Of a stretch of 64,000 nucleotides of DNA, positions 3,406 through 62,463 are shown piece after piece (the first letter of the stretch is position 1; the number at the start of each line of letters is the position of its first letter). The notes beneath the pieces are model-generated. The model did not search any database. It saw only the letters and a program-made list of their open reading frames with translations, and was not told where the DNA came from. The translations under genes were made by a program, and so were the position numbers. The DNA is from a virus. The stretch lies in the IMG/VR virus record IMGVR_UViG_3300035182_000466, positions 64,001-128,000 of that record; one strand, written 5' to 3'.

Positions 3406-3433
3406 CTAATATTTTGGCATGAGGTGTTGCAGA

Positions 3434-4209: not shown

Positions 4210-4219
4210 GGATATAACA

Positions 4220-26474: not shown

Positions 26475-26513
26475 AATTTATAATTTATATAAACAATGTA
26501 AAGCGAGGTTCTT

Positions 26514-29108: not shown

Positions 29109-29129
29109 ATTAAGATATAGGAGATAATC

Positions 29130-41989: not shown

Positions 41990-43843
41990 ATGATGATAAG
42001 AAAACCTGTAGACTTAAGTACAGTCGTTCCAAATTTTTCAGATTTTGTTGCAGCTTTACAGCAAGATCTTAGAGCACGAGACTCTTGGAAGGACCTTGTT
42101 GATGGTAGTACCGGAGAAACCTTAATAGAACATAATGCTGCTATTGGGACATTTCTACAGCAATCTTTAGAGACTGCCTTTAAAGAGTGTTTTACAGATA
42201 CAGCCTCCAGAGATAGTTCTATTTATGCAATAACTAGAATGTTGGGTATTAGAGTATCCAGAAAATTACCTGGAGTGCAAAGTTGTAACATTCAAAGATC
42301 CAATATGCTTAACTTGCCTATAAGTAATTCATTGGTTATTCCAGAATTTTCACAGTTTACTGTTGGTGATGATATTCCTTTTTATAATAGATCTACCTTG
42401 AACTTTGTAGAATCTAGTGCAACATTAAATAATGTTCTTTTATATCAAGGTAAAATTTATACTAAAAAGTATGTAAGCTCTGGAGAACCATTTCAGAGAA
42501 TAATAATTCAATCATCCTCACCAATGTCTATATCAGATATAGATATAATTGTTTATGTTGGAGATGAAAAATGGACTGTCGTTTATGATGGTTTATGGAA
42601 TTATGGAATAGATGATAAAGTTGTAGCAGATTCTACTTTAGGTACTGGTGACGTTATTCTTCAGTTTGGAAATGGCTATAATGGAGCATTACCTGCAACT
42701 AATCAAGATATAACCGTACAGTATGTAGAGACTTATGGTGCAAAATTAAGTATGATAGGTTCAGGTGCAAACGTTCAATTAAATAATCAACTTAATGGAT
42801 ACTCTATATCTGGTAATATTATACGACTACCAGATGTTACCCAAATTTTTACTACCTTAGGTGGTTTGAGTTTAACACTAAGTAGTTTAACTAATCCTAC
42901 TCCAGTAGTTTATTTACCTTCTGGAAATAGTTGGGACATAACTAATGTTGGTTTTCAATTAGAAGAGAGTAATGGAGGACTTGCTTTAATAACAGGAGTA
43001 AATGGAAATGAAGCAACCTTATCTGTAGTGTCTCCTTTTACGACAAAAAATTTATCTGCTGGATCCTGGTTTATGTCAGTACCAACTACGGGTCAAGATG
43101 AAAAACCTAGTTATTATTATAAGGTTCTATCACCTAACATGAGCAAGGCAATGGGAAGAGCTGTTACTACTCAAGACCACTCTGCTGTTATAATGCAATA
43201 CAGCGGAATAAGTGATGTTTTGGTAAGAACAGAAAAAGATATAATAAAAGCTTTGACGCAAAAAATACAGAAAAGTGCAGAGGTTATAGCTAGAGAACAG
43301 TCTCTCAATATTTATAACGGTGTGGATTACTATGAAATAGTTCCAGATATACATCCTGCACTTCAAAATGTGATATGGGTTTCATTTTTAACATCTAGTG
43401 GATTAAGTTTTAATTCACTTCAGAATACCGAATTTTTAAACTGGTTTAGATCTAAGCAATTTGATGGAACTACTATTAAACTTCAGGTTCCTACTAAAAA
43501 CATGGTAGATTTATCAATTTCTTTATATTGCAATTCTGGAAAAGATCTTCTGGTAGCACAATCATTGGCAGAGACTGCAATAAGAAAGATGTTTGCAACA
43601 GACAAGCCTATGTTGAGCAAAAAGATTGTAATGAATGATATTTATGATACTTTAAGTAATAGCCTTGATGACTTTTTAGATTATTCTTCTATAGAGGCTA
43701 AGTTAGATGGAGTAGCAACCTTTGAGTTAGTTCCAAAGAATGCAGCTATAGATGACTTCGGTTTTCCTGTACCACCTGGATACTTATATTTGCAGAATTT
43801 ATCTATAACAGCCAAAACTACAGATAGAAGAAGTAAAAGGTAG
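41990..43843 (+). CDS. baseplate wedge protein, gp6/gpJ-like
   Basis: FTDTASRDSSIYAITRMLG, SSGEPFQ, LQFGNGYNGALP, GQDE, RAVTTQD. Confidence 0.85.
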   Translation: MMIRKPVDLSTVVPNFSDFVAALQQDLRARDSWKDLVDGSTGETLIEHNAAIGTFLQQSLETAFKECFTDTASRDSSIYAITRMLGIRVSRKLPGVQSCNIQRSNMLNLPISNSLVIPEFSQFTVGDDIPFYNRSTLNFVESSATLNNVLLYQGKIYTKKYVSSGEPFQRIIIQSSSPMSISDIDIIVYVGDEKWTVVYDGLWNYGIDDKVVADSTLGTGDVILQFGNGYNGALPATNQDITVQYVETYGAKLSMIGSGANVQLNNQLNGYSISGNIIRLPDVTQIFTTLGGLSLTLSSLTNPTPVVYLPSGNSWDITNVGFQLEESNGGLALITGVNGNEATLSVVSPFTTKNLSAGSWFMSVPTTGQDEKPSYYYKVLSPNMSKAMGRAVTTQDHSAVIMQYSGISDVLVRTEKDIIKALTQKIQKSAEVIAREQSLNIYNGVDYYEIVPDIHPALQNVIWVSFLTSSGLSFNSLQNTEFLNWFRSKQFDGTTIKLQVPTKNMVDLSISLYCNSGKDLLVAQSLAETAIRKMFATDKPMLSKKIVMNDIYDTLSNSLDDFLDYSSIEAKLDGVATFELVPKNAAIDDFGFPVPPGYLYLQNLSITAKTTDRRSKR

Positions 43844-46048: not shown

Positions 46049-48613
46049 ATGGCTACAATGCAAATAACTAAAGTCGGTTATGAGCAAATAACCGATGCAC
46101 TACAAAGTGGTTATACTTTAAAGATTACTAAAGTTAAATTTGGTACTGGATCAGATTATGTTCCAACAGCAGGAGATGTTGAACTTCATGGTCATATTCT
46201 ATATGAAGGCCCAATTAGTAATGTGGATGTAGTAAATGATGATATAATTGATTTTCTTTGTATTTGCCCTGAGAACTTAGGTGTAGACACAGTCACTATT
46301 GGTGAAGTTGGATTATATATAGAAAATACTGATGGAACCGATACTCTATTTGCATTAGCTTGTTATCCTTATCCTTTCAGTAAAGCACCAAATATGCGGT
46401 ATAAAACACACTGCTTAGTTTTGAATCCATATATAAGCAATGCAGTAGATTTAACTTTAACTTGGACTATGAGTTTACCACGAGTTAATTATTATGGAGA
46501 TTTACCTAATCCGGAAAGAACTGGAGATAATGCTTATATAGTAAACCACGGATTTACAGATAGTGGTGTTTTAAAACCTTCTTTAGTTACACGATACGCA
46601 ATGTCTGATACAGGCCCACTAGCGTGGGGGCTCTTAAATGGAGATTTATATTATGATGGCTATGTTACTCCAGTTGAAGGGGATCCAGCCAGTTTTAAAT
46701 TAGCTGGTTTACCATTGTCTAACTTTCCTGCCATAAATATTAAATTTGCTTTTGTTTATGTTTGTGAAGGTACAGGAAGAACTCAGTGTAGAGCATTATC
46801 TTATAATGCATCACTAGATTGCTTTACTACTTTGTATGAAGACTTTTCCTTAACTGTTAAGGGATCTGGAACTCCTTCCTATGAAGGAGCTTGTAATACA
46901 GGTAACACTGCAGGTACTGTGTTGCATATAACTAATCTAGATTCAAGCTCAAGAGTATTGATTTGGACAGCGGTAAGGATGGAAGCTACTGGTCTTGTTT
47001 TTAGAGGTCGTTGGGATGCAGCAGCAGGATATCCATCTAGTCCTATTCCAGGATCATACTGGGTAGTATCTGGTAATGGTATTATAAATGGAACCTGTTA
47101 TCAAGTTGGAGACTGGATGGTATTTTCTGGTGATGAACAGTGGGATAAGATTGATAACACTGAACTACCTTACTTACTATATCGTGGTGATTGGGATGCT
47201 TCTACCGGTCAAGCTCCACCGCCACAACCAATACAATATTATTGGCAGAATATTCGTCAAGGACATTATTGGGTAATAAGTACTGCTGGAGTTATAGCAG
47301 GAGTATGGTTTGATGTTGATGATTGGATAGTATGGAATGGAACAAAGTGGCAAAAAGTAGATAATAAAGGTGGTCTAAAATTTAGAGGGTATCATGCTAT
47401 AGTATCTGATAATCATGTGCCTACTGTTTTAACTGATGGTGACTATTGGATTGTGTCCCAAAAAGGAACTATTAATGGTATTCGTTATGATGTTAAAGAT
47501 ATCCTAGTATGGACAGGTTCAACCTTTATGCGGTTGATAAATCAAGAAGGCTTAGTTTATCAAGGTCTTTATGACCCAAGCATAACTGGTGAATATCCAG
47601 TGCCTTTCAAATCTGGTGATCTTTGGATTGTTAAAAAGAATGGTGAAGTAACTAATCAAGATGATCCTACAGTTAAAGATAACTTATATGTAGATGATTT
47701 TTTAGTAGCTATTCCAACTACTAGTACTACTTTTACCTGTGATACTAATAGTAATAGTACCATTTTAAATACTACTGGTAATATGCGTTGGAAAGTAATT
47801 TCAGCAGGAGGATTAACCTATCGTGGTACTCATGATGCATCTACTGGTATTATGCCAATTCCCCTGCATAAAGGAGACTATTGGGTTATTACTAATCCAG
47901 GTTATTTAAATGGTGTATATTATGAAACAAATGATTGGATTACATTTAATGGATCTTCTTTTAATAAAGTTAGTAATAGAGAAGGTCTTAAATATCAAGG
48001 ACTGTGGGAAATTGGTACCAACGGATCTGTACCTCCAACTCATCCAGTAGAAGGTGACTTTTGGATTGTTAGCTCTCCTGGATCTGTACAAGGCACTGGA
48101 TATAGTATAGGTGATTGGTTAGTTTGGACAAATTCTGGATGGACTAACGTTGATAATAGACCTGGATTCTATTATAGAGGAGACTGGAATCCAACTTCAG
48201 GAACAAATCCAGTTGCATTAAAAGAAGGCGATTTGTATCGTATTAACGCTGCTGGTACATTCAATGGCGAGCATGTAGCTCCTGGAGACTTCATTGTTTG
48301 GACAACAGCAGGATGGCTCCTGATCTTAGGAACTCTTGACCGTATAGATATTCCTAGATATAACATAACCACTAATGATTACATGCTCCGTGAGTATGAA
48401 TATGCAGATGCTTCTACTGGTAAAGTATATAACTCAGCTAAAAACCTTAAGATAGGATTTGCATTAGAGATTTTATTTAAAGATAGAACTAATCCAGTGT
48501 ATGTACCATATCTTGAACAATTGAACGAATTAGAGTTTTGTGGTTGTACTTGTACTTGTACTTGCCAATGTACGGCACCTTGTAACTGTTGTAAAGGCGC
48601 AGGTCCAGTTTAA
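46049..48613 (+). CDS. tail fibre: collar-type N-domain, 7 ~55-aa repeats, Cys-rich C-terminal tail
   Basis: MQITKVG..KITKVKFGTG..IGEVGLY..LFALA baseplate-attachment domain. Repeats (Y/F)RG.WD..GD(Y/F)W.V..G..GD.LVW.G..W.KVDN; ends CGCTCTCTCQCTAPCNCCKGAGPV. Confidence 0.85.
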   Translation: MATMQITKVGYEQITDALQSGYTLKITKVKFGTGSDYVPTAGDVELHGHILYEGPISNVDVVNDDIIDFLCICPENLGVDTVTIGEVGLYIENTDGTDTLFALACYPYPFSKAPNMRYKTHCLVLNPYISNAVDLTLTWTMSLPRVNYYGDLPNPERTGDNAYIVNHGFTDSGVLKPSLVTRYAMSDTGPLAWGLLNGDLYYDGYVTPVEGDPASFKLAGLPLSNFPAINIKFAFVYVCEGTGRTQCRALSYNASLDCFTTLYEDFSLTVKGSGTPSYEGACNTGNTAGTVLHITNLDSSSRVLIWTAVRMEATGLVFRGRWDAAAGYPSSPIPGSYWVVSGNGIINGTCYQVGDWMVFSGDEQWDKIDNTELPYLLYRGDWDASTGQAPPPQPIQYYWQNIRQGHYWVISTAGVIAGVWFDVDDWIVWNGTKWQKVDNKGGLKFRGYHAIVSDNHVPTVLTDGDYWIVSQKGTINGIRYDVKDILVWTGSTFMRLINQEGLVYQGLYDPSITGEYPVPFKSGDLWIVKKNGEVTNQDDPTVKDNLYVDDFLVAIPTTSTTFTCDTNSNSTILNTTGNMRWKVISAGGLTYRGTHDASTGIMPIPLHKGDYWVITNPGYLNGVYYETNDWITFNGSSFNKVSNREGLKYQGLWEIGTNGSVPPTHPVEGDFWIVSSPGSVQGTGYSIGDWLVWTNSGWTNVDNRPGFYYRGDWNPTSGTNPVALKEGDLYRINAAGTFNGEHVAPGDFIVWTTAGWLLILGTLDRIDIPRYNITTNDYMLREYEYADASTGKVYNSAKNLKIGFALEILFKDRTNPVYVPYLEQLNELEFCGCTCTCTCQCTAPCNCCKGAGPV

Positions 48614-48630
48614 ATTAAAGTGAGGATAAT

Positions 48631-49368
48631 ATGTCAAGAGTATATTTTTGTGTTAAAAACAGTTATTCTTCTACCACTCCTAAACCTGCGAATATTACGT
48701 CTGTAGGAGATGTAACTATAACAGTATCTAATTCAAACATAATAATAAATCAACCCGATGTTCTTATAGACTCAGATAGAGATATACATTTAATAGTTGC
48801 TTCAGATTTTACATTTAATACTCCTGGTCTAGTTCAGACTTCGCATGTTTTTGGTTCAAAGGATTATTTTGATAAAGTACAGGTTTATTATTATAATAAT
48901 ACCTATTTCTATTATTTTGAAAGTGTAGAACATTACTGTGCCGTATATGAGCGTCACTTTTCTACAGTTTATTTTAGACATGATCCTACTAAAATATTCT
49001 GTGAAGTAACATCTAATGCGATAGCTATTCAAGGAGCAGGTAAATTTGTTTTTCTAATCAGAGGTCTTTTTGTTTCAGAAAATGTAGTTACCTTGAAAAT
49101 GCAAGATGAAGAAAAAACTGAAATACCAATATCTTTAATATCAGATAGTAATACACAAACTACGTTAAACTCTATAAATACTTCTTTCAATACGTTAGAA
49201 AATGGTACTATAGTAGATTCCTTTATTCAAAGTCGTGGATTCTTTTTAGAGCTAGACCCCGATGTTTTAAAAGGTGAAGGTTATCTAATAATAGAGAATG
49301 AATTACCTACAAGTTTTGCAATAACCGGTGTATCTAAGACTAGAAGTAAAATGATGTTCTTTATTTAA
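48631..49368 (+). CDS. hypothetical protein (fibre chaperone or rSAM accessory candidate)
   Basis: GAGG RBS; 245 aa, beta-rich; between the fibre and rSAM genes. Confidence 0.6.
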   Translation: MSRVYFCVKNSYSSTTPKPANITSVGDVTITVSNSNIIINQPDVLIDSDRDIHLIVASDFTFNTPGLVQTSHVFGSKDYFDKVQVYYYNNTYFYYFESVEHYCAVYERHFSTVYFRHDPTKIFCEVTSNAIAIQGAGKFVFLIRGLFVSENVVTLKMQDEEKTEIPISLISDSNTQTTLNSINTSFNTLENGTIVDSFIQSRGFFLELDPDVLKGEGYLIIENELPTSFAITGVSKTRSKMMFFI

Positions 49369-49402
49369 AATAATAACTGATTACTGGTAAAGGAAAAATA
49401 AA

Positions 49403-50767
49403 ATGATAACTAAACATGATTTAGAAGATGATATTTTAACCTTTTCTAAAGATAGGTCTTTTAGGTATTTTAAAACAAAAGGCGGATTATTAGTAAAGAG
49501 CTTTCTTAATACAAATAGATACTATATAGAAAGTGCTGATGATGATTTACCTATTGCCTCTGTTTGTTTTGGAGAAGAAATATTTACTAATGATGAATTA
49601 GATCAACTATATGATATTATAAATCAAGATAAAAAACAGTTACGCCAAGATATATTTAGTTTAGGAATATTCAATTCTACCTGTAATGTTAGTTGTGAAT
49701 ATTGTACTAATGGCGATAGAACTAAAATGCTCCAGAAGCTACCAAGTATAGAACAACTACAAGAGGTCTTTAATACTTATAACATCAAATATGTAAGTGT
49801 AGCTGGAGGAGAACCATTAGTAGAATGGCCCCAACTAAAAAATATTCTGACATTTTTAGATGAACAACCTGGTATAAAAACAATGGAAATCTTATCAAAT
49901 GGAAGATTACTTAAGCCTGAGATACTTGAGTTTATATCTAGTTTAACACGAGACGTTAAGTTATTTTTAACTGTTACTACAAAAGAAGACTCAAAAGATC
50001 ACATGAATATACAAGAGCTTTATGAGTTATATCCGAAGTTGGTAGGACACCCTGTTGAAATAAATATTGTTATAGACCACTATAAATTTGATGTAGATAG
50101 ATTTTTATCTTTAATTGTAGAAATGGTTAAAAAAGGAAATTTTGGAGTAACCTTAAATGCAATACGCAGAGAAGACGCAACAGAAGAAGGACTATTGCAA
50201 TTAATAAATAATGTAAAAGCAATGATCCGAAGTCCTCATATTCGTGATTTGTCTTGCCCCGAAGACGATAATCCAACAACACCTTTTTATTATGCAACCG
50301 GAAGTTGTAGTAGTGGGATGATTTGTGCTTCATCTAAAGGTTATTCCTTTTGTTTGGCCTCTATGCCACAATATATAGAACAAACTGTAGAAGGTGTAAA
50401 GAATATAAGATATATGCAGTCTAAGCATGGATGTGAATCTTGTGATGCTTATTTTGATGATGTCTTATGTAAGAATAATATTTTCTCTGGTAGTTGTTAT
50501 AAACTAGAAAGATTCAACTGTTTAACTTGTCCTAATTTATGCCAATGCCAATATCAGAAGTGTTATTATCTTTCAGTGAAAAAAATAACAAATCCAGTTG
50601 CAGATTATAATAGAGACTTAAGATGTATAGCTTATGTTTTAATTTTCAATCTTATTGACTATATAAAACATCAACATATAGATTATTCTGATAGTAATAG
50701 TGTGTATAAAATAGACTCAAATAAAATACCGGAGAAATTAGTAAATGAATATTTTTCTACTAAATAA
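49403..50767 (+). CDS. radical SAM protein with Cys-rich (SPASM-like) C-terminus
   Basis: CNVSCEYC, AGGEPL, LSNGRLL; C-terminal CSSGMIC..FC..CESC..C..C..CLTCPNLCQCQYQKC..C. Confidence 0.9.
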   Translation: MITKHDLEDDILTFSKDRSFRYFKTKGGLLVKSFLNTNRYYIESADDDLPIASVCFGEEIFTNDELDQLYDIINQDKKQLRQDIFSLGIFNSTCNVSCEYCTNGDRTKMLQKLPSIEQLQEVFNTYNIKYVSVAGGEPLVEWPQLKNILTFLDEQPGIKTMEILSNGRLLKPEILEFISSLTRDVKLFLTVTTKEDSKDHMNIQELYELYPKLVGHPVEINIVIDHYKFDVDRFLSLIVEMVKKGNFGVTLNAIRREDATEEGLLQLINNVKAMIRSPHIRDLSCPEDDNPTTPFYYATGSCSSGMICASSKGYSFCLASMPQYIEQTVEGVKNIRYMQSKHGCESCDAYFDDVLCKNNIFSGSCYKLERFNCLTCPNLCQCQYQKCYYLSVKKITNPVADYNRDLRCIAYVLIFNLIDYIKHQHIDYSDSNSVYKIDSNKIPEKLVNEYFSTK

Positions 50768-51863
50768 ACATCACACTTGCTACCTATCAAATTCTGAGTT
50801 AAACTTTCTTAGGTTCTGTGCAGAGAAGCTTAAAGGTCTTGAATATGTAGAACAACCAGAGCTAGCAGATTTAATTGTTTATTCCGGATGTTCTGTTTCT
50901 GACGATTATATCATGAGGAATAATAAAGAGCTGGATAAACTTATAGCGCTATATCCAGAAAAGAAATTTATGTTATTTGGATGTGCTGCACCTTATGGTG
51001 AGCACTCAAATGTAATTAGTATTGTACATCTAGAACATTCTAAATTAGATGATCTCTTTAATTTACCTTCTGGTTCAATAAAGCAACTTCACTCTTATTA
51101 TTTCACCTATGAGAAAATTTTTGAAGATCAGAAAGCTATTTTTATATCTAGTGGTTGTGCTAGTAATTGTACTTATTGTAATATTAAGTTATCTAGACCT
51201 AAATTAAAATCAATGCCTTTAGAAGATATTCTTGAAAGAGTGAATCAGTTTTATGCAACTAATCATCATTATGTCTTATGCTCAGATGACTGTGGTTCAT
51301 ATGGATTAGATATAGGGACTAATTTTGCAGTTTTACTAGAAACTTTAGTTTTAAATTTTCCTGATATACTTATAAATATAAAGTGGGTTAATCCACAATG
51401 GTTTATAAAGTATTATGATGTTATAAAGAAATATGTGGATACAGGTAATGTTATAGGTATAGAATGTCCTATTCAGTCAGGATCAGATAGAATATTAAAG
51501 TTAATGAATCGTCCATATACTGTAGAAGAAGTCATTGATAAATGGACCAAGATAAAAGGAAAGTTACTATCTTCTAAAGGTACAGTCATAGTAAACTTTC
51601 CTGGAGAAACTTGGGAAGAATTTTTAGCTTCTATGTCTTTACGTAAACATTATGAAATTTTTATAGTATATATTTTCAAACTAAACAAAAATACAGCTAG
51701 TGCAAATCTTCCAGATAGACGAACAGAGGAGGATGCTAAGAGACGACTTGAATATCTAAAAGAACATTATCCAGACATATACTATGGTGGAGATCTTATA
51801 GATAATAACTTAGACCGCTGTATAGACAAACCTTATATGGTAGATAACTTAGAATATGATTGA
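50745..51863 (+). CDS. MiaB/RimO-like methylthiotransferase-family radical SAM protein lacking TRAM domain
   Basis: N-domain Cys triad (HTC, ADLIVYSGCSV, FGCA); GCASNCTYC; PIQSGSDRILKLMNRPY; VNFPGETWEEF; only 372 aa. Confidence 0.85.
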   Translation: MNIFLLNKHHTCYLSNSELNFLRFCAEKLKGLEYVEQPELADLIVYSGCSVSDDYIMRNNKELDKLIALYPEKKFMLFGCAAPYGEHSNVISIVHLEHSKLDDLFNLPSGSIKQLHSYYFTYEKIFEDQKAIFISSGCASNCTYCNIKLSRPKLKSMPLEDILERVNQFYATNHHYVLCSDDCGSYGLDIGTNFAVLLETLVLNFPDILINIKWVNPQWFIKYYDVIKKYVDTGNVIGIECPIQSGSDRILKLMNRPYTVEEVIDKWTKIKGKLLSSKGTVIVNFPGETWEEFLASMSLRKHYEIFIVYIFKLNKNTASANLPDRRTEEDAKRRLEYLKEHYPDIYYGGDLIDNNLDRCIDKPYMVDNLEYD

Positions 51864-53076
51864 TACTTTATCCATAAAAATGGTAGATATTCCAGGTGTT
51901 CTTGAATATCATTCTTCGACGCATTCTTTCAATTATTGTCCTGAAGTTATACAGACTGAAAGAATAAAATTTGAAGATAGAAATGAAATACAACAAGACT
52001 TCTCGAAAGAATATCTTAATAAACAAAAAGAAGAATCAGATAAAGTACCAATTATAGGTACAGTAACCATTACTAATGAATGTAACATGGGATGTTCTTT
52101 TTGTTATGCTCATAAAAATGAGCAACTAGGAAAAATAAATTTAGACTATCTTATACGATTAAAGGAAAAGCTTCCTAAAGAATGTTTTGATCATCTTATT
52201 TTATCTGGTGGTGAACCATTATTATATTTTGATACGGTTAAGTCAGTAAGAAAGTTATACTCAAAGGTTGTAATATATACTAATGGTAGTCTTTTAACAG
52301 AAGATATTATTAAATGGTGTATAGATACAAAGACATGGTTATACATAACGTTAGATTTTGATATTCCAGATTTTATTGGTCATCACTCTAGTCCTGTAAG
52401 AGATTTACTAGAAAAGTACATTTATAAGTATCCTAAATTGTTAGATATAATATCTTTTGGGACAGTTCTTCCAATAGAAGAACTTATAAATTTGCCTAAG
52501 CTTAGGCAACAACAAAAACCTTTTGAGTCAGGTATATGGAGACTATACAATTTTTTAGATCCAAAAGATAAAAATTATGTAGTTAGTTCTGAAGGTTTTG
52601 ATCTTGAAATGAGTAATATAGAAACTGGTTCTATTAGTCTTCAAGAATCAATATTTTTTAGATATTTGAACTATGTACAAACAGCTTCTACTAATGAATA
52701 CAACTATAGTTGTTGTGGAAATTCATTAGCCCTAACACCCAGTGGAAACTTAACTATCTGTAATGAGTTATCAAGTTTACCTGAGTCTCGTTTAAAAAAT
52801 ACAAAAGTATGGTCAATAGATTCATTAGATTTAGAAGAAGTTAAACAAGAACAATTAAGAGTAGGTAAATACGGTATTAAAAGTTTTTGTGGTTCATGTA
52901 TTATGAAATATTTTTGTTCAGGATTGTGTTGGCAGAAAAAGGGTAATCTTAAACATCAATGTCAAATGGCACGCTTCGGAATAGCATATAGTATGTATTA
53001 TAAGTTTAACTATTTGAATACTAATTCAATACTAAATCCGAATACAAAGTTATCAGAAATCTTAAGAGATAGGTAA
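51856..53076 (+). CDS. radical SAM/SPASM domain protein
   Basis: CNMGCSFC, SGGEPLL, YTNGSLL; SPASM-type SCC..LTPSGNLTIC..CGSC..YFCSGLC..C. Confidence 0.92.
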   Translation: MIDTLSIKMVDIPGVLEYHSSTHSFNYCPEVIQTERIKFEDRNEIQQDFSKEYLNKQKEESDKVPIIGTVTITNECNMGCSFCYAHKNEQLGKINLDYLIRLKEKLPKECFDHLILSGGEPLLYFDTVKSVRKLYSKVVIYTNGSLLTEDIIKWCIDTKTWLYITLDFDIPDFIGHHSSPVRDLLEKYIYKYPKLLDIISFGTVLPIEELINLPKLRQQQKPFESGIWRLYNFLDPKDKNYVVSSEGFDLEMSNIETGSISLQESIFFRYLNYVQTASTNEYNYSCCGNSLALTPSGNLTICNELSSLPESRLKNTKVWSIDSLDLEEVKQEQLRVGKYGIKSFCGSCIMKYFCSGLCWQKKGNLKHQCQMARFGIAYSMYYKFNYLNTNSILNPNTKLSEILRDR

Positions 53077-53083
53077 TATATTT

Positions 53084-54352
53084 ATGTCTTCATCAAAAAT
53101 TTTAGTAAATGCTATTGGTATAAAAGATAATTCTACGGGATTTGCTATCTTATATGTTCCAGAATTTCATTTATTTTTAAAGTCTGAAATACGTCAAAAT
53201 AAACCTGTAGAATTTTATACTAATTATTCAATGCCTGTACTTTGTACTCATCAAAATGAGATATATGAAGAGTACAATAAACTAGAAACTCAGGCAGTAA
53301 ATAAAATTCCTAACATAGGTTATGTAATAGTTAATAATGTCTGTAATATGAATTGTACCTTTTGTTATGCTGCGGCTAATACTAATCATAAAAGAGTAGA
53401 CATTTCTGATCTAGAGCACCTGTCTAAGATATTGCCCAAAAATTCGTTTAGAAAAGTAATTATTTCTGGAGGAGAACCTTTATTAGACTTTGATCTTGTA
53501 AAACAAATAAGAACATTTTTTGATGAAATGACTATAAACTCTAATGGAATGCTTCTTACAGAAGATATAGCTAATTGGTTAGTAGAAACAAAGACAAAAA
53601 TGTATATCGCCTTAGATTATGAGATTAAAGATTTTGAAGGACATGACTTTAATGCTAAAGCGCATGTAGAAAGTATAATCGCTAAAGTTCCAGAAGTTCT
53701 TCCATTTATAGAAGTCGCTGTAACTTACCCTAGTGATAAACTAGATGAGTTAAAAGATATTAGAACTCAAAATCTTCCATTTGAAAAAGAACTGACCCAC
53801 GATTTTAATTACATTAAAGGAAAGGATCCTTTAGTTTTAACTAAATCTATATTTGAAAAAGAAATAGAAAGAATAGAAAGAGATGAAATTTCATTACAAG
53901 AATCTATCTTTCATAAACCTCTTAAATATATACGAAATACTTATAACTGGAGACTTAATATAGAGTCATGCTCTCCAGCCGTACATTTAAATCATCTTGG
54001 AGATTTACATCTATGTCAGGTTAGAGCCTCCAATACAAATAGACCTGAAGAGTATGAGAAAGATGTTATCTGTAAAGCTAAAGATTTTAATTTAGACATA
54101 TATAGACAAAGATCCAACAAAGATAAAAAGATTGGAGTTTGCACAATAGATAAAAATTGTAACTGTAGATGGTTTTGTGGAAATATATGTTGGGCTAATA
54201 TAAAACATAATAAACATAATTGTGAAGTTCTTAAATACTCGTTATTCTATTCTATGTATTTAGTTCATAATTATCTTTCTATGGAAGGTTTTAGTTTATT
54301 AAATTTAGATAGATTTTTCAATTCAAAACTAAAAGGATTGAACTATGTCTGA
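53084..54352 (+). CDS. radical SAM/SPASM domain protein (paralog of 51856)
   Basis: CNMNCTFC, SGGEPLL, NSNGMLL; SC..LNHLGDLHLC..C..CNCRWFCGNIC..C; shares ISLQESIF with 51856. Confidence 0.92.
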   Translation: MSSSKILVNAIGIKDNSTGFAILYVPEFHLFLKSEIRQNKPVEFYTNYSMPVLCTHQNEIYEEYNKLETQAVNKIPNIGYVIVNNVCNMNCTFCYAAANTNHKRVDISDLEHLSKILPKNSFRKVIISGGEPLLDFDLVKQIRTFFDEMTINSNGMLLTEDIANWLVETKTKMYIALDYEIKDFEGHDFNAKAHVESIIAKVPEVLPFIEVAVTYPSDKLDELKDIRTQNLPFEKELTHDFNYIKGKDPLVLTKSIFEKEIERIERDEISLQESIFHKPLKYIRNTYNWRLNIESCSPAVHLNHLGDLHLCQVRASNTNRPEEYEKDVICKAKDFNLDIYRQRSNKDKKIGVCTIDKNCNCRWFCGNICWANIKHNKHNCEVLKYSLFYSMYLVHNYLSMEGFSLLNLDRFFNSKLKGLNYV

Positions 54353-57300
54353 TATTCGTCCTGTACTAAGTATTTTAGAAAAACCTGAAACCTTAAATAA
54401 AAGTAAGCAATGTTCTTTTACCTTTAAGTCATCTAAACCTTTGAAATATGTCTGGTGTGTTTTGGATAATAATCCAAGTTTTAAACTATATCCATCAAAA
54501 GATTATCCAGAAGGTGATATTGCTATTTTATCTTTAACCTATGATGATTCTGATGATAGAGTTAAACACGAGCTAACAGTTCAAGCAGTAGATACAGATG
54601 ATAATCTTGAGATATATAAAAATGTAATAGTTTGGACTAATGTTTTTATACCTATACAGTCTACATTAGTAGAACATCCTTCTGATCCAGATTTAGACTT
54701 AGCAAGTTATTTTCTAATTACTACAAATAAAACTGTATTGGGAGTAAGATATTCCTTAAATAATAATCCTTATGTTTTTGTCAAACCTTCAGATAGAGTT
54801 TCTGATAACAAGACAGTAGATATTTCATTATATGATCTATCAGAAAGATCATATACGATAAGATATAAAGCTGTAGATGAATTTGGATTCGAAGAATTAA
54901 CTGAACATGAATTTACTTGGAATAAAGTAGTACGTCCTATTACTACAATAGTAAATATATCTGAAACAAACGATCCAAAAGTAATAGAGTTATCTGTAAA
55001 TAAACAAGTTGCATATATTGAAAGTTATCATTATTACGGTGAAGATAAAGAATCTTTTAGCGAAATTTGTTCAGAAGTAAACTCCTCTGGACAAGAAAGA
55101 TTCTACTTTAGAATACCACAACCTTTTGAAGGTAAAAATGAAGTACAATTTACAGCTGTAGATACTAAAGGTTACAGAGAATTAGAACCCGTTGTTTATA
55201 CTTGGTATGAAGATAAAACAGTTTTATATTCTACCTTTATTGAGACACCAGCAAAAGTATCACAGATTACAGATTCTAAATTTACTATTGTAACTAATAA
55301 ACCAGTCGATCATATAGAATATACTTTAGACGATCAACCGGAGAATAAAATATACCCTTGGCCTGAAGATGTAACTAATAAAACGTTCAAGATAACATTT
55401 ACATCTATGCAAGAAGGGTTTCATAATCTATCTATAAGAGCAGTAGATGGGTCTGGATATTTGGAGGATGAGGCACGTGTTTATTCATGGAAAGTAGAAG
55501 ATCCACCAGTTTCAAATATAATAAAGTACCCAATTAGTCCTAGTACAGAATCAACTGCTACCTTTAAAATTGTTGCTAACAAACCATTGAGTCATGCATT
55601 ATACTCGTTGAACGGATCGTCTTGGAAAGTATTTAATATAGATCCTAATGACTCAACTAAGACAAGTGCAAGTATAACAATATCTAATTTAAAAAATGGC
55701 GATTATACTATACAGATAAAAGCAGTAGATTTATTTGGAGCTGTGGAGAGAGAATCAACTGAAAAATCTTGGAGTGTAGAAGGTATTGAAGTTGTTTATC
55801 CAAATGTAGGATATGGTTCATCTAAAACAATCTTACCAGATGGAGTTACAGAAGCATTTAGATTTCACCCATCTCCAGGTGTATATTTTCCAGAGAGCTT
55901 ACTTGAGTTACCATCTGTTAGATCAATAATATATCCAGATACATTTATTGTAACATTTCCCGAAAAGTTTTCTAATCAAACTTCAGGAGTATTTACATTT
56001 TCATCTACTAGAATTGGAGCAACCTACCAGATTAGTTTAGATGGTTCTGAGTGGAAAGATGTAGGTAATCTATATAAATTTAATGATCTAGTTTTAGGCT
56101 CTCATTTACTTAAAGTTAGATCTATAGATAGAGCTGGGAATATTGATCCATCACCAGCAGAGTATTCTTGGAGTATAGACACTAAAAAACCAGTTTCTAC
56201 CTTTGTAGAAACTCCACCTAATATATCTATCTCACAGGAAGCATCTATAAGAATAGAGGTAGATAAACCAGTTCAGTACGAGTTGTACTCTTTAGATAAT
56301 TCTATATGGTTAAAGTCTTATCCTTTAGAGTCAGATCCAGATAATAGAACGATATTAGTAGAATTATATAATCTAAATTCTGGACCGCATAATTTTAGAG
56401 TAAAGGCTTGTGATATATATGGTAATATAGAAGTACCAGAAAAGTATTATAACTGGTTTGTAAATACAGATAGGACTCCACCTGATACTATTATAACTAC
56501 TATAATTCCTGAATATACTAATAAAGTTAACTGGGATATAGACTTTATGTCACCTAAACTTGGTTGCACTTTTGAAGTAGCTTTAGACGTAACATTATCT
56601 AATACAGATATACGATATGGTGAATGGGTGTCTGCGAAAAGTCCTTATATTCTTTCTGATTTAGCTGATGGACATTATGTGATAAAGGTTAGAGCGATTG
56701 ATCTATTTGGAGATATAGATGTTACACCTGCTCAATTAGCTTGGAATATAGATACAGTTCCACCAAAATTATTTTTTGTTACAAAGCCGACAGGACCAAA
56801 TGGAACATTTGAAGTTGTCTCAAATAAAACAAATTGCAGCTATCATTTTATTTATAATGATAGTGATACAGAAAACGTAGTATACAGTCCTATCATACCA
56901 TATAGCAATTTACCTGAAGGAGTTAATATTGTAAAAATTTATGCTAAAGATATGGCAGGAAATTCTGGAGATGTTATTTCTTATACTTGGACTATTGATT
57001 CAGTAACACCTAATACCTTTATTGATACTTATCCAATAGATAATAGCTCAAGTGGGCAGTTTACTTATCACGCAGATAAACCTAATTGTGTCTTTGAAGT
57101 TACTTTGGACTCAGTTACAAGTTTTAAAGAAAGTCCTTTTACTTTCACTAATTTATCTTCAGGTTTTCATACCTTTTCAGTTAGAGCAAAGGACTTAAAT
57201 GGAAATTTTGATGTTAATCCCAAAACATATACTTGGGAAGTAAAGATTTTAAGTACGATAACTGTTACAGTTTTTAATGCAATTAATGCTAAAGCTATCT

Positions 57301-57920
57301 CAGGTGCACTTGTATCTATAGACACTGGAGAATCTAGTAATACAAATACTTCTGGTGAAGCTAAGTTTACTAGTATAAAGGCAGGACTTAGAACAGTCAC
57401 AATCGCTAAAGATCAATTTGTTACAGAAACCGTAACAGTTACTTTAACTGAAGCTGCGATAGCAATAACTGTTTTATTATCGCCCTCTCTATGGGATGGT
57501 GCCTATCGTGCTGTATTACGTTGGGGTTACAAACCTTCTGACTTAGATATCCATATGTATGTACCATCAGGATCAACTTACATAGACCGTAACTGGGCTA
57601 ATAAAGGAAGTGAAATTTCCACACCATCTGGATGGCTAGACATAGATGATACTGATGGTTATGGTCCAGAAACTGTTACTGCTAAAACTCCAAATATAGG
57701 TATTTATCAAATATGGGTGTACAATTATTCTCAAACACCAGATATAACATCTTCAAATGCTGAAGTTAGTATATACTCAGACCAAGGAAAACAGCGTACT
57801 TATAAAGTACCTTTAAACTTAGGTACAGGATATAAAGCTTGGCATATATGTGATATCGACTGTGTAAACAAAATTATAACTGATGTAAATTTATTAAGAA
57901 CAAATCTACCAAATATATAG
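54345..57920 (+). CDS. large Ig-like repeat protein (~10 repeats) with carboxypeptidase-regulatory-like and YfaP/DUF2135-like C-terminal domains
   Basis: Repeats PDT.I..P..F..S..Y.LD..L..G.H...V.A.D..GN....Y.W. Then VFNAINAKAISGALVSI and LRWG..DLDIH..LDIDDTDGYGPET. Confidence 0.75.
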   Translation: MSDIRPVLSILEKPETLNKSKQCSFTFKSSKPLKYVWCVLDNNPSFKLYPSKDYPEGDIAILSLTYDDSDDRVKHELTVQAVDTDDNLEIYKNVIVWTNVFIPIQSTLVEHPSDPDLDLASYFLITTNKTVLGVRYSLNNNPYVFVKPSDRVSDNKTVDISLYDLSERSYTIRYKAVDEFGFEELTEHEFTWNKVVRPITTIVNISETNDPKVIELSVNKQVAYIESYHYYGEDKESFSEICSEVNSSGQERFYFRIPQPFEGKNEVQFTAVDTKGYRELEPVVYTWYEDKTVLYSTFIETPAKVSQITDSKFTIVTNKPVDHIEYTLDDQPENKIYPWPEDVTNKTFKITFTSMQEGFHNLSIRAVDGSGYLEDEARVYSWKVEDPPVSNIIKYPISPSTESTATFKIVANKPLSHALYSLNGSSWKVFNIDPNDSTKTSASITISNLKNGDYTIQIKAVDLFGAVERESTEKSWSVEGIEVVYPNVGYGSSKTILPDGVTEAFRFHPSPGVYFPESLLELPSVRSIIYPDTFIVTFPEKFSNQTSGVFTFSSTRIGATYQISLDGSEWKDVGNLYKFNDLVLGSHLLKVRSIDRAGNIDPSPAEYSWSIDTKKPVSTFVETPPNISISQEASIRIEVDKPVQYELYSLDNSIWLKSYPLESDPDNRTILVELYNLNSGPHNFRVKACDIYGNIEVPEKYYNWFVNTDRTPPDTIITTIIPEYTNKVNWDIDFMSPKLGCTFEVALDVTLSNTDIRYGEWVSAKSPYILSDLADGHYVIKVRAIDLFGDIDVTPAQLAWNIDTVPPKLFFVTKPTGPNGTFEVVSNKTNCSYHFIYNDSDTENVVYSPIIPYSNLPEGVNIVKIYAKDMAGNSGDVISYTWTIDSVTPNTFIDTYPIDNSSSGQFTYHADKPNCVFEVTLDSVTSFKESPFTFTNLSSGFHTFSVRAKDLNGNFDVNPKTYTWEVKILSTITVTVFNAINAKAISGALVSIDTGESSNTNTSGEAKFTSIKAGLRTVTIAKDQFVTETVTVTLTEAAIAITVLLSPSLWDGAYRAVLRWGYKPSDLDIHMYVPSGSTYIDRNWANKGSEISTPSGWLDIDDTDGYGPETVTAKTPNIGIYQIWVYNYSQTPDITSSNAEVSIYSDQGKQRTYKVPLNLGTGYKAWHICDIDCVNKIITDVNLLRTNLPNI

Positions 57921-57940
57921 TAGTATAATACGAGGACTTT

Positions 57941-58159
57941 ATGACAACTATTTTAGATCCTTATTACACTTTATTAAGTCAATATTACAATAATTATGAT
58001 CTATTCATATCTAAGTGTAAAGATAGTGGTTTAACAGTCTTAACCATAGTAGAGTTTAAAGATAAAATAAATACTTTATTTCCTAAAACTAGTAACGTTC
58101 ATAGAACACCTGTTACTCGTTCTCCACGAAGTTGCTGTGGAGGTGGAGCATCTCGTTGA
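57941..58159 (+). CDS. 72-aa peptide ending RSCCGGGASR
   Basis: GAGGA RBS; ORF in track. Confidence 0.65.
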   Translation: MTTILDPYYTLLSQYYNNYDLFISKCKDSGLTVLTIVEFKDKINTLFPKTSNVHRTPVTRSPRSCCGGGASR

Positions 58160-58202: not shown

Positions 58203-58586
58203 ATGGAAATGGAAGACAATACTACTAAAACTGAAGAAAACGTAACTGCAAGTGAGGAAAAGCCAAGTGAGGAAAAGAAACAACAACCATTTATTAACCA
58301 TAATACTTTTGCATTAGCTTTTGTTATTATAACGGTAGTATATATTACACTAGTGTTTAAGTATTTTAATCCTACTACTGGTCCTGAGTACGGAACTGCA
58401 CTTAGAATAAGTGCAAGTTCTATGCAGTCTACAGCTTTATGGTTTATCTCTGCATTAGGTTTTGTGATTACTCTAAATGGTCTTAAATTCGATGTTTATA
58501 AAGAAATAGTAGATGAGCATAATATAGCATTAGCTCTTTTAGTTGGTTTTGCATGGTTAGCTCTTGCTTTAGTTATAGCACTATAA
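58203..58586 (+). CDS. three-TM membrane protein (DUF350-like; holin candidate)
   Basis: Three hydrophobic helices; FDVYKEIVDEHNIALALLVG; adjacent to the hydrolase gene. Confidence 0.6.
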   Translation: MEMEDNTTKTEENVTASEEKPSEEKKQQPFINHNTFALAFVIITVVYITLVFKYFNPTTGPEYGTALRISASSMQSTALWFISALGFVITLNGLKFDVYKEIVDEHNIALALLVGFAWLALALVIAL

Positions 58587-58598
58587 CTGGAATTAAAG

Positions 58599-59249
58599 AT
58601 GAAGAAGTTAATCTTGTTAATTTTAACTTTCTTGTTTTTATTTTCAGTACCTAACGTAGTATTTTCTGGACCTTATGATCTAGAGGTCTTAAAGAAAGCA
58701 GAATCTTACTTATATGTAAGAGAGCTTAATCCTATTAATGGTAATAGAAGTCCAGAGATAGATATGTGGCTTAAGTATGTAGGGCTACCACCTGGATTAT
58801 CTTATTGTGTTACTTTCAATGTCTATTGTGTTGGTAGTGTCTATGAAGCACATGGCAAAAGAAATCCTTTACCAAAAATTGGAAGAGTATCAACATTGCT
58901 AAAAATAGTAAAAAAAGATAAGTATGCTTTTACTGTAGTACCTGCAAAAGATGTAGAATATGGTTCGTATATTCTAAAACCTGGGATGATAGCTATTTGG
59001 TCTAACAATAAAAAATTAGATGGTTCTGGTTTAGATAAGTATGATTGGGCCGGTCATGCAGAGTTTGTAACAAGTCCGCTGGTTAAATCTAAATTTGGTT
59101 CTATTGGGGCTAACACTATAGGTGTAGATGACATACGTTCACAAAGAGAGCAAGCTAAGACTGGACCTGTAGGTGGAGTTTATAGAAAAAGTAGAAACAT
59201 AAGTAAACTTAAATCTTTTAATACAGAAGCATTTATTAAAATAAATTAA
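58599..59249 (+). CDS. signal-peptide-bearing CHAP-like peptidoglycan hydrolase (endolysin candidate)
   Basis: MKKLILLILTFLFLFS signal; LYVRE..NRSPEID..GLSYCVTF (Cys), PGMIAIW, GHAEFV (His), SIGANT. Confidence 0.7.
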   Translation: MKKLILLILTFLFLFSVPNVVFSGPYDLEVLKKAESYLYVRELNPINGNRSPEIDMWLKYVGLPPGLSYCVTFNVYCVGSVYEAHGKRNPLPKIGRVSTLLKIVKKDKYAFTVVPAKDVEYGSYILKPGMIAIWSNNKKLDGSGLDKYDWAGHAEFVTSPLVKSKFGSIGANTIGVDDIRSQREQAKTGPVGGVYRKSRNISKLKSFNTEAFIKIN

Positions 59250-60015: not shown

Positions 60016-62463
60016 ATGATTTTATTAAAAGATATGAAGACTAGTCTTTTTAAAAATGCTGATGCCTATTGGAAGAGTAATAGAAAAGATCATATCCAAC
60101 TTGAAAGTTATGATCTATATATAGGTGCTAGATTCAGATGTAAAGTACGAACAGGATCAACTTTAAAGTATTTATACTTTACTATAATATCTTTAGATCC
60201 TGCAGTTATAGCTTATTGGATTCAGGATGAATTTGCAATTTATCTAGCACCTGTAGATTTTGAGCAACTATTTATAAGAAGGATACTCAATAGACGTAAC
60301 CTTATAGAAAAAATGTTACATCCACAAGATATTCGAATTATACCCGTCAAAGTATTAAACTCCATACAGACTAGAAAAATGCTTTGGATGATACCTAGAT
60401 TAACACAGAAAGATGTTCAATCAGCGCCTTATAGCTTGAACATTATTTCTCCTAAACTGATTTACAACTTTAGTACCTACATTAGTGCAGGTAAAGAAGA
60501 TATCTTCGGGTGGTTACTTAATCTAGTAACACAAGCCAATTCTGATTATCATACAGGTAAAAAACAATCAAGTCTTACTGATGATCAATATGACGAACTA
60601 AAAGAACTGTTGCTATCTATAGATCCTAAAAAAGCTAAGATTTTAGAATCAGTTGGGGCACCAGTAATAGAAGAAAAAGATGTTAGGAAAAAGGTAGAAC
60701 TTGAATATAAAATGGGTTCATTACGTAAGATTAAACCAGATGGTTCTACTACAAATAAATTTATAAAAGATACAAAAGATGATGAGTATATAGTCTCTGA
60801 TAAGTTAGATGGATTAAGTCTGAGTTTAACTTATAGAAATTCAAATTTAGTAAAAGCTACAACTAGAGGTGATGGTTATATTGGACAAGATGTAACTAGG
60901 CATATACTTCAAGTTCCTTCTGTACCTAAGAAACTTAATTCTAAATATGCTAAAGAGAATCTAACTATACGAGCTGAAGGAATTTTAGCAAACTCTGATT
61001 TTGAGATGTTTAACAAACTCTTGGTTAAAGAAGGTAACTCGGAATTTGCTAATCCACGCAATATGATAGCTGGTGTATTTAATAGATTATCACCTAATAA
61101 AAAAGTTTTAGCTAAGTTAAATGTTGTAACTTATGCTATAATGAGTAGAGAAAAAGACTTAGATAAAAAGCAACAACTTAAACAACTTGAAGATATGGGT
61201 TTTCATGTAGTTCCTTACAAAGTATTTAAAGCTAAAGATATTTCAGAAGAGAAGTTAACAAAGTATATTTCTGATAGAAAGCTAATGGGTGACTTTGATT
61301 TAGATGGGGCTGTAATAGAAGTAAATAATGCTAAGATCAGACAATCCCTTGGTAATGAAACTAATTCAATAAATCCTAAATATGCTAAAGCATTTAAGAC
61401 TGGTGATACTGAAAAAGTTGAAGCTAAAGTACTAGAAGTTGTATGGGCTGTATCTAAACATGGATATTTAAAACCACGGATTCGTATTTTTCCTGTAAAA
61501 TTAGGTGGTGTTACTGTATCATATGCTACAGCTTTTAATGCCTCTTTTGTTTATGAAAATAAATTAGGTCCTGGAGCTAAGGTATTATTAACACGTTCTG
61601 GCGATGTAATTCCACATATACTTAAAGTAATAGATAAAGCTAAGAAACCTCAAATGCCAGATAAAGATGTAGTAGGTAATTATGAATGGAATGATACAAA
61701 AGTTGATTTAGTATTATCTGAACCACATGAGAATGATACTGTAAAGATAAAACAAATATCCGGATTCTTTAGTCGGATAGGAGTAGATTATCTTGGACGT
61801 GGCTTAATAACACGTTTTTATGAACACGGCTTTGACTCTATAGATAAAGTAATTCACATTACTGTAAAAGATTTATTATCTATTGATGGTATTCAAAAGA
61901 AAAGTGCAGAAAAATTATATGAAGGTATTACTAAAGCATTACAGACTGTAGACTTACCTACTCTAGCTTCTGCTACTCCATACTTTGGAGTAAACTTTGG
62001 AGAAACAAGACTAGATAAAATATACGAAGTTTATAAAGATGAAATGTTTAGTAGATGGAAAGGTTATACAGTAAGAACTGTAGCAGAAGAAATTTCTAAA
62101 ATACCTGGATTTAGTTCTAACACTGCAATTCAATTTGCAAAAGGTATTAAACCTTTTAATTCATTTTTGAAAAGAAATTCTGATGTATTAAAAATAAACA
62201 AGAAGAAGGAACAAAAGAAATTAAGTAATGTATTTTCAAATGTATCTATTTGTTGGACTGGCATTAGACAAAGAGACTTAGAAGAACTACTTATAGCAAA
62301 TGGCGGTAAAGTAGAATCATCTGTTAAAAATGGATTGACCTATCTTGTAGCAAAAGATCCGAATAGTACTAGTGCTAAAATGCAGAAAGCTAGAGATTTG
62401 AAGATAAAGATAATATCTCCAGACCAAGCAATAAAATTGTTTAAAGATAAAGGTGTTTTATAA
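60016..62463 (+). CDS. ligA: NAD-dependent DNA ligase with N-terminal extension
   Basis: TDDQYDEL, MGSL, KLDGLS, TRGDG..GQDVT, RAE, FANPRN, LDGAVI, AFK, VSYAT, RSGDVIP, HhH motifs and a C-terminal BRCT. Confidence 0.95.
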   Translation: MILLKDMKTSLFKNADAYWKSNRKDHIQLESYDLYIGARFRCKVRTGSTLKYLYFTIISLDPAVIAYWIQDEFAIYLAPVDFEQLFIRRILNRRNLIEKMLHPQDIRIIPVKVLNSIQTRKMLWMIPRLTQKDVQSAPYSLNIISPKLIYNFSTYISAGKEDIFGWLLNLVTQANSDYHTGKKQSSLTDDQYDELKELLLSIDPKKAKILESVGAPVIEEKDVRKKVELEYKMGSLRKIKPDGSTTNKFIKDTKDDEYIVSDKLDGLSLSLTYRNSNLVKATTRGDGYIGQDVTRHILQVPSVPKKLNSKYAKENLTIRAEGILANSDFEMFNKLLVKEGNSEFANPRNMIAGVFNRLSPNKKVLAKLNVVTYAIMSREKDLDKKQQLKQLEDMGFHVVPYKVFKAKDISEEKLTKYISDRKLMGDFDLDGAVIEVNNAKIRQSLGNETNSINPKYAKAFKTGDTEKVEAKVLEVVWAVSKHGYLKPRIRIFPVKLGGVTVSYATAFNASFVYENKLGPGAKVLLTRSGDVIPHILKVIDKAKKPQMPDKDVVGNYEWNDTKVDLVLSEPHENDTVKIKQISGFFSRIGVDYLGRGLITRFYEHGFDSIDKVIHITVKDLLSIDGIQKKSAEKLYEGITKALQTVDLPTLASATPYFGVNFGETRLDKIYEVYKDEMFSRWKGYTVRTVAEEISKIPGFSSNTAIQFAKGIKPFNSFLKRNSDVLKINKKKEQKKLSNVFSNVSICWTGIRQRDLEELLIANGGKVESSVKNGLTYLVAKDPNSTSAKMQKARDLKIKIISPDQAIKLFKDKGVL

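Follow-up and report, generated by a model that had tools for sequence, protein, structure and literature searches.

The virus record IMGVR_UViG_3300035182_000466 of IMG/VR encodes a tail fibre that ends in a dense run of cysteines, with four radical S-adenosylmethionine (SAM) enzymes encoded downstream. The window analysed here, a stretch of 64,000 nucleotides, comprises bases 64001-128000 of this 170-kb viral record, which is estimated to be 63% complete. The fibre and two of the enzymes, the paralogues A1 and A2, appear to belong to a phage-specific maturation module in which enzymes of the A family covalently modify the cysteines of the fibre tail, most likely by installing thioether cross-links (probability roughly 0.6). 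Because the pairing of tail and enzyme is present in every related locus examined, these phages probably modify their host-binding fibre chemically. The tail is the probable substrate of the A family, judging from the sequence comparisons: the genes are linked, the tail is portable over unrelated protein bodies, and the enzymes resemble Cys-directed maturases. That the products are thioether cross-links, and that these have a structural role, is a guess by analogy.

The genes on which the argument turns are the following.

46049..48613, plus strand: tail fibre of 854 amino acids (aa), carrier of the Cys tail and proposed substrate (PF12571, PHROG families and position)
48335..48538, plus strand: Cys-free spacer, fibre residues 763-830, common to the window and the related locus L011
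48631..49368, plus strand: accessory protein of 245 aa, with a homologue in the related locus L008
49403..50767, plus strand: radical SAM enzyme B, 454 aa, with a Cys-rich, SPASM-like C-terminus (PF04055)
50745..51863, plus strand: MiaB/RimO-like radical SAM enzyme without a TRAM domain, 372 aa (TIGR00089)
51856..53076, plus strand: radical SAM/SPASM enzyme A1, 406 aa (motif, model and profile family)
53084..54352, plus strand: radical SAM/SPASM enzyme A2, 422 aa, an A1 paralogue at 35% identity

Linkage between tail and enzyme was counted over loci with A-family members at 23-43% identity to A1. Eleven related loci have readable upstream DNA (L008, L009 and L010 being counted as one), and in all 11 a protein with a Cys-rich tail is encoded zero to four genes upstream of the A-family enzyme on the same strand. 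Cys-Xaa alternation is strict in 10 of the 11 tails. An earlier sequence-only reading of the window had proposed, as a test, to look for co-occurrence of fibres ending in CxCxC with clusters of SPASM radical SAM enzymes; such co-occurrence was found at these 11 loci and again at a distant locus of siphovirus type (L058), and no radical SAM cluster lacking a Cys-rich partner was seen among the 11. One more family member, on a contig without retrievable DNA, lies outside the count. The Cys-tailed proteins are distributed as follows.

L008/L009/L010: fibre-like protein of 407 aa, upstream of the enzyme
L006: protein of 643 aa, after a Baseplate_J gene
L011: protein of 720 aa, 44% identical to the window's fibre
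L020: protein of 255 aa
L021: two consecutive Cys-tailed proteins
L022: protein of 370 aa, immediately before the enzyme
L023: alternating Cys run immediately before the enzyme, of which the last 22 residues are visible
L224: protein of 148 aa
L226: two Mtd_N-domain proteins with Cys tails
L228: protein of 660 aa, immediately before the enzyme
L229: protein of 888 aa at the most distant member, with a Cys-rich tail of wider spacing

Sorted by similarity, the bodies that carry these tails form at least seven groups, with no similarity detected between groups; among them are tail-collar fibres, Mtd_N proteins and small proteins of 129-255 aa. Because it is found on unrelated bodies, the tail seems to move as a module, and this genomic association supports a functional link between tail and enzymes as well as the sequence-only proposal of a core like that of a peptide made by ribosomes and modified after translation (RiPP), fused to a structural protein. 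The cores hold 9-13 cysteines; of the 93 C-x-C units, 50 have Thr as Xaa and 11 have Pro. The minimal set, seen in L022, L023 and L228, is a tail and an A-family enzyme. L011 has a fibre, a 250-aa protein, one B-type and one A-type enzyme, while L006 and L224 share another common arrangement with three SPASM-type enzymes. Radical SAM genes number one to three in the relatives and four in the window. The tail and the A-family enzyme are the conserved core; the other radical SAM enzymes and the accessory genes differ between loci. Two small paralogous proteins of L226 (158-970), each with the N-terminal domain of the Bordetella phage tropism determinant (Mtd_N), carry a Cys ladder followed by a Ser/Gly-rich stretch, in a locus with two A-family enzymes.

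Viral contigs were also searched from the tail side with a DNA pattern for five cysteines separated by threonines. This pattern recovered 80 loci, nearly all of them microsatellites or out-of-frame artefacts. L058 is the sole genuine C-terminal tail among them and also the sole locus to match the enzyme profile, the other 79 giving no match. Its setting is a tail-tip region of siphovirus type (2898-6114, minus strand). Behind a lambda-J-like tip protein come, in this order, the 191-aa protein that bears the tail of 16 cysteines as well as two His-x-His-type motifs, a SPASM radical SAM enzyme of more distant kinship, and a second radical SAM enzyme of a different type (449 aa).

The proposed substrate region lies at the end of the window's fibre. 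Nine cysteines, the number given by the sequence-only reading, lie within the last 24 residues; the core spans residues 831-848 (nucleotides 48539-48592; nine cysteines in 18 residues), and six residues follow before the stop codon at 48611-48613. Six of the nine cysteines keep a strict C-x-C register, encoded partly by three TGTACT units. The spacer at residues 763-830 is a possible recognition segment, comparable to a leader, and its Asn-Pro-Val-Tyr-Val-Pro-Tyr motif recurs in L011. The body belongs to a fibre: its N-terminus scores 22.6 bits against a cut-off of 23 for the tail-collar fibre domain PF12571, PHROG tail-fibre families match it at E values of 4e-7 to 6e-5, and 480 aa align with the 720-aa Cys-tailed fibre of L011 at 44% identity. 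A query with the 50-residue tail returned the fibre itself as its sole match. The fibre end is identical in four assemblies bearing sediment and microbial mat metagenome labels, which are candidate sources of the record, and their contigs, which hide rare variants, show no sign of repeat slippage there. Oxygen-sensitive enzymes would fit such sediment and mat habitats, a fit that is not independent evidence.

A1 and A2 form a rare family. The A2 orthologue is a 412-aa gene of L008 (39% identity). A word-based search of 5.8 billion proteins returned three A-family relatives only, and an A-family profile run against 1.84 billion representatives yielded 22 clusters with E ≤ 1e-30, all on phage or metagenome contigs. 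The score falls from 170 to 112 bits after these 22 clusters, beyond which lie generic radical SAM proteins. Among 185,579 prokaryote genomes (one per species) there were no A-family members, only generic matches to the radical SAM core. In IMG/VR, a scan with the single A1 protein found no relative and an alignment-based scan found L011. GenBank phages gave no match to the radical SAM block as a DNA query and nothing in a tblastn search with A1 at E ≤ 1e-8; at 1e-3 there were distant matches only, to three Ralstonia jumbo-phage records (RP12, RP31) and one unannotated phage record from a faecal sample. The cultured jumbo phage RP12 (L230, NC_041911.1 77168-92076) has three radical SAM genes directly after its virion structural genes, along with a protein of 125 aa that is rich in Tyr, His and Trp and contains no cysteine; the phage has no Cys tail. 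RP12 may represent a related theme with a different, aromatic substrate.

Motif and fold place A1 and A2 among SPASM enzymes. All 20 aligned sequences keep the CxxxCxxC triad and, with canonical SPASM spacing, seven C-terminal cysteines; the spacing required was C-x9-15-G-x4-C, C-x2-C-x5-C-x3-C and a final C, which corresponds to two auxiliary [4Fe-4S] clusters, and in A1 the seven residues are at positions 287, 302, 345, 348, 354, 358 and 369. The AlphaFold model of A1 is confident, with a pLDDT value (the predicted score of the local distance difference test) of 86.8. Its best fold matches in the PDB are CteB (E 7e-12), anSME (template modelling (TM) score 0.63/0.67), ChlB, SkfB, SuiB and TigE, and the alignments to CteB and anSME extend through the C-terminal domain of A1. 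A sequence-profile comparison ranks CteB first in the PDB (E 1.9e-18; anSME, E 1.1e-6). NCBIfam matches of the enzymes are mostly to maturases of Cys-containing peptides, reached through the radical SAM core only and far below curated cut-offs, the best being 37 bits against a cut-off of 425 and 35 bits against 340. Because CteB-like fold and sequence matches go together with family scores below cut-off, the A family is predicted, from sequence and model, to act like a Cys-directed SPASM maturase outside any described family. The sequence-only reading had called three genes radical SAM/SPASM: A1 and A2 earn the label by motif and fold, although the Pfam SPASM model PF13186 matches none of the four enzymes at E ≤ 0.01, and the 454-aa enzyme B was so named from its Cys content only.

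Co-folding lends weak, model-based support to the pairing of A1 with the tail. A1 with fibre residues 763-854 scored 0.37, and the best control 0.02. Of 80 solved complexes 58 reached the mark used, and of 110 mismatched pairs 2 did so; only 7 of the 80 complexes, but both passing mismatches, reached it with a score of ≤0.60. The runs agree in at least 12% of contacts, and the pLDDT of the partner is at least 28.

In the mechanism proposed here, the fibre would be made with a C-terminal extension consisting of a Cys-free spacer and a mostly Cys-Thr (Cys-Xaa)n core with nine cysteines. A1 and A2, encoded just downstream, would be expressed along with the late structural genes. The A-family enzymes would then bind the tail and alter its cysteines covalently by 5'-deoxyadenosyl radical chemistry, with the help of their auxiliary Fe-S clusters. 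The product would most likely be a set of sactionine- or ranthionine-type links, each joining a Cys sulfur to a carbon atom in a nearby residue, formed within one chain or between the chains of a presumably trimeric fibre, and the result would be a rigid tip that resists reduction and proteases. Further, lineage-specific modifications might come from enzyme B and from the MiaB/RimO-like enzyme without TRAM, which is a candidate methylthiotransferase, and the 245-aa protein may serve as a chaperone or adaptor. Thioethers are put forward as the most likely chemistry because CteB is the nearest characterised enzyme, because Thr dominates at the Xaa position and because CrpC sets a precedent on a protein-sized substrate. 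A bolder version is tentative, with the odds running against it: several unrelated phage lineages would install a thioether ladder within or between the chains of the receptor-binding fibre tip, which would make it the first enzyme-made radical cross-link in a virion. Such a ladder could act as a covalent staple for the host-recognition tip in anoxic habitats, and the product would be tuned by how many Cys-Thr units there are and by the accessory enzymes, a protein-directed methylthiotransferase among them.

Radical SAM/SPASM chemistry on Cys-rich cores is known from small antibiotic-type peptides and a few cellular proteins. Like A1 and A2, the ranthipeptide thioether synthases, including CteB (acting on CteA, a SCIFF peptide, to give thermocellin) and PapB (acting on PapA to give freyrasin), combine a radical SAM core with a seven-Cys SPASM domain, and their Cys-dense C-terminal core is likewise encoded beside the enzyme. 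Threonine is an acceptor in thermocellin and SCIFF peptides. The A family differs in being phage-specific, in scoring far below the cut-offs of the CteB and PapB families (TIGR03974, NF047865) and in showing no canonical recognition domain. The substrates differ as well, being short peptides with SCIFF or C-x3-D spacing in the known systems and proteins of 129-888 aa from virion regions, with C-x-C spacing, in the loci described here.

QhpD makes intraprotein Cys-to-Asp/Glu thioethers in QhpC, the gamma subunit of quinohemoprotein amine dehydrogenase, and thus resembles the proposed system as a radical SAM/SPASM enzyme that acts on a structural subunit rather than an antibiotic peptide. Its substrate is a bacterial periplasmic enzyme subunit with other motifs, and QhpD is not among the NCBIfam matches listed for the enzymes. 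The nearest published precedent is archaeal. CrpC of Methanococcus voltae, a radical SAM/SPASM enzyme with three [4Fe-4S] clusters, forms ranthionine links on the Cys-rich C-terminal region of the adjacently encoded CrpA (PMC13692751, 2026). CrpA contains 17-residue repeats with C-x-x-Q/D motifs, and the paper makes no mention of phages or tails (PMC13692751). CrpA resembles the fibre as a protein-sized, C-terminally Cys-rich neighbour of its enzyme, but the system is archaeal and cellular, and the likeness of CrpC to the A family is one of system description; TIGR04463, the CrpC family, is not among the best 25 of 51 and the best 25 of 46 NCBIfam matches for A1 and A2, respectively. The sequence-only reading knew of no characterised example. 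For phages this stands, since full-text literature searches returned no paper in which a phage tail protein is modified by radical SAM enzymes; more broadly it gives way to the archaeal case of a protein substrate (PMC13692751).

Several findings weigh against a thioether-forming module. All four enzymes score far below the curated cut-off of every named maturase family, so the chemistry is not readable from family membership. No canonical RiPP recognition element was identified in A1, where residues 1-61 of the model form four strands and one helix and no canonical winged helix. One of the three co-folding runs with the fibre scored 0.01. Most of the related contigs are short metagenome fragments, and the linkage was counted from the enzyme side, so that the frequency of tails without a radical SAM gene lies outside that count. 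The two remaining points bear on rival explanations. The enzyme anSME, which oxidises Cys to formylglycine, fits the A1 model about as well as CteB does: anSME and the model are much alike in overall fold, SPASM domain included, the anSME structures (4K36-4K39) align at TM scores of 0.58-0.67 with the lowest root-mean-square deviation of the top matches (4.6-5.6 Å), and anSME acts on a Cys in a peptide segment of a folded protein. The JGI automatic name for two A-family relatives, 'sulfatase maturation enzyme AslB', points the same way. The cysteines might thus be modified without cross-linking, by an anSME-like (AslB/AtsB) conversion to formylglycine or some other change of single residues, which would give a reactive fibre tip. 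This is judged unlikely, although somewhat likelier than the other alternatives. The sulfatase motif, Cys/Ser-x-Pro/Ala-x-Arg, does not occur in the fibre tail, CteB outdoes anSME by the profile comparison with A1 given above, and 9-13 cysteines packed at conserved spacing suit multiple ring closures more than they suit nine aldehydes.

The other point is that a C-x-C ladder of 9-10 cysteines resembles metal-thiolate domains. The tail might form a metal-thiolate or iron-sulfur tip, comparable to the metal-binding His-x-His spine of the T4 long-fibre needle, with the radical SAM enzymes building or inserting a cluster or making a minor change. Nine to ten cysteines in about 20 residues, in C-x-C and C-C units, resemble metallothionein domains, and alternating residues in a strand would put every thiol on one face. 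The Crp genes of M. voltae are upregulated on pyrite (PMC13692751). Metal binding needs no enzyme, yet the tail is always linked to one to four radical SAM genes, and family searches of the window's proteins found no metal-chaperone genes; a metal tip seems a slightly longer shot than single-residue modification. It is improbable that the fibre is merely a carrier from which a modified tail is cleaved as a free RiPP-like peptide, for instance against competing cells or phages. The C-terminal layout of leader plus core is typical of RiPP precursors, and some phage fibres lose C-terminal parts after assembly (intramolecular chaperone domains), but no protease or exporter gene was found in any of the loci, the tail is always on tail-region proteins with no free short precursor in A-family loci, and the genes belong to the late structural operon and directly precede those for lysis. 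Least probable is that the enzymes target a nucleic acid, a host protein or a cofactor and lie beside the Cys tail by accident. Phage radical SAM enzymes do serve other purposes, QueE-like and viperin-like families give partial matches to the enzymes, and the genome has a fifth, unlinked radical SAM/SPASM gene, but the linkage is kept in every counted locus despite unrelated fibre bodies and low enzyme identity.

Covalent modification of the fibre tail by the A family, if true, would make radical SAM/SPASM chemistry a recurrent step in building virus particles, in the form of a post-translational, oxygen-sensitive maturation of the organ of host recognition. A phage-specific SPASM maturase system with a virion fibre as its candidate substrate is new relative to described systems. 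It would add a new kind of virion stabilisation to HK97-type isopeptide chainmail and metal-binding fibre needles, and RiPP enzymology would gain a new family of enzymes whose substrate is simple and repetitive, along with what may be a protein-directed methylthiotransferase. Engineered phages or tailocins carrying such fibres would need the maturases. The rule linking tail and enzyme makes the question directly testable with synthetic genes.

The module lies at the end of the structural region of a large, contractile-tailed, myovirus-like phage, with tail and baseplate genes around the fibre and a tape-measure or lysin-like protein also within the window. Its neighbours are listed here.

8794-9894: major head protein (family searches)
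12433-14187: tail sheath, the canonical gene (family searches)
41990-43843: baseplate wedge, the gene preceding the fibre gene
54345..57920, plus strand: immunoglobulin (Ig)-repeat protein of 1191 aa, outside the conserved module (Ig-like domain matches)
57941..58159, plus strand: open reading frame (ORF) of 72 aa, a doubtful member, ending Cys-Cys-Gly-Gly-Gly-Ala-Ser-Arg
58203..59249, plus strand: membrane protein (127 aa) and CHAP-like protein (216 aa), probable lysis genes that form the downstream boundary

From the fibre gene to the 72-aa ORF, the junctions measure +17, +34, -23, -8, +7, -8 and +20 bases in order. A check of ORFs and sequence bore out the coordinates and the tight spacing from enzyme B to the Ig-repeat gene given by the sequence-only reading, and its count of four radical SAM enzymes holds, all four exceeding the Radical_SAM (PF04055) cut-off of 29.5 bits (39.8, 69.4, 49.2 and 45.8 bits). 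No plus-strand terminator-like site lies between module genes; one weak site falls inside the MiaB-like gene (51383-51396). A promoter scan was uninformative, with fewer sigma-70-like sites than in shuffled sequence. The pair of membrane protein and CHAP-like protein also lies 3' of the module in L008, whose counterpart gives a weak CHAP match, and in L011. Because probable lysis genes come next in the window, L008 and L011, the module appears to close the late structural operon.

The remaining enzymes are less widely distributed than the A family. Enzyme B has an L008 orthologue, with which it shares 33% identity over 446 aa, and its counterparts in L011 and L006 are distant; as enzyme B has no PF13186 match, its SPASM label is drawn solely from its C-terminal cysteines. 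The 372-aa enzyme had been read as MiaB/RimO-like, and so it proved: it matches TIGR00089 at 149 bits (cut-off 251) over profile positions 25-358 of 429, and Cys12, Cys49 and Cys80, together with the triad at 138/142/145, are conserved with its L008 orthologue. It resembles RimO, MiaB and MtaB in combining an N-terminal three-Cys cluster domain with a radical SAM core, and RimO likewise modifies a protein, ribosomal protein S12. It differs from them in its score, in its place in a phage tail operon, in its restriction to one subclade of the module (the window, L008 and, by gene size and order, probably the P0002 contig) and in lacking a TRAM domain, as indicated by the end of the TIGR00089 match at position 358. 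Its UPF0004 match is weak (22 bits against a cut-off of 27), and the L008 orthologue is shorter still (335 aa). A Cys-Cys-x-Gly-x-Gly-Pro ending is common to the loci with this enzyme, the window and L008, and the enzyme could be linked to that motif, a suggestion drawn from two cases only.

The 245-aa protein has no family match, no database homologue besides itself and no usable Atlas match. In L008 the corresponding place is taken by a homologous 241-aa gene (E 8e-8), and hhalign detects a weak resemblance to the 250-aa gene of L011 (E 6e-4); the AlphaFold model of the 245-aa protein has a pLDDT of 45.6, is unusable and was not used. Accessory proteins of about 250 aa from different clades show no detectable relation to one another.

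The sequence-only reading had listed all four enzymes, the Ig-repeat protein and the 72-aa peptide in one operon. Conservation upholds the tail and the A-family enzyme, while four enzymes are not required and the last two genes are found in the window only. The Ig-like repeats of the 1191-aa protein are real (Big_13, Y_Y_Y and Ig_J matches), and no counterpart of the protein was found in L008, L011, L006 or the other loci. Nor does the 72-aa ORF have a counterpart in the related loci; a 74-aa ORF of L008 does not contain the Cys-Cys-Gly-Gly-Gly motif. Because neither occurs at any related locus, both were rejected as parts of the core system. The Cys-Cys-Gly-Gly-Gly end of the 72-aa ORF resembles the fibre's last residues (Cys-Cys-Lys-Gly-Ala-Gly, nucleotides 48584-48610), a resemblance that may or may not be meaningful. 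The Ig-repeat protein ends (57300-57920) in about 150 aa without a family match, after its Ig-like repeats and a CarboxypepD_reg/PEGA-like domain.

The fifth radical SAM enzyme, of 327 aa, is encoded outside the window on the minus strand (G000:C1:149102-150085; L005 916-1899) and has a clear PF13186 match; the surrounding 3.4 kb contains no Cys-ladder ORF. Within the window, an NAD-dependent DNA ligase of 815 aa (60016-62463) has a family match that begins at residue 167, leaving an N-terminal extension outside it, and the equivalent place in L011 is occupied by a gene of about that length (811 aa). Additional to the canonical sheath gene, three consecutive proteins of 1033, 864 and 424 aa (23373-26474, 26514-29108 and 29130-30404) each match the PHROG 'tail sheath' family phrog_12249, which makes the trio at 23373-30404 an unusual set of sheath-domain paralogues.

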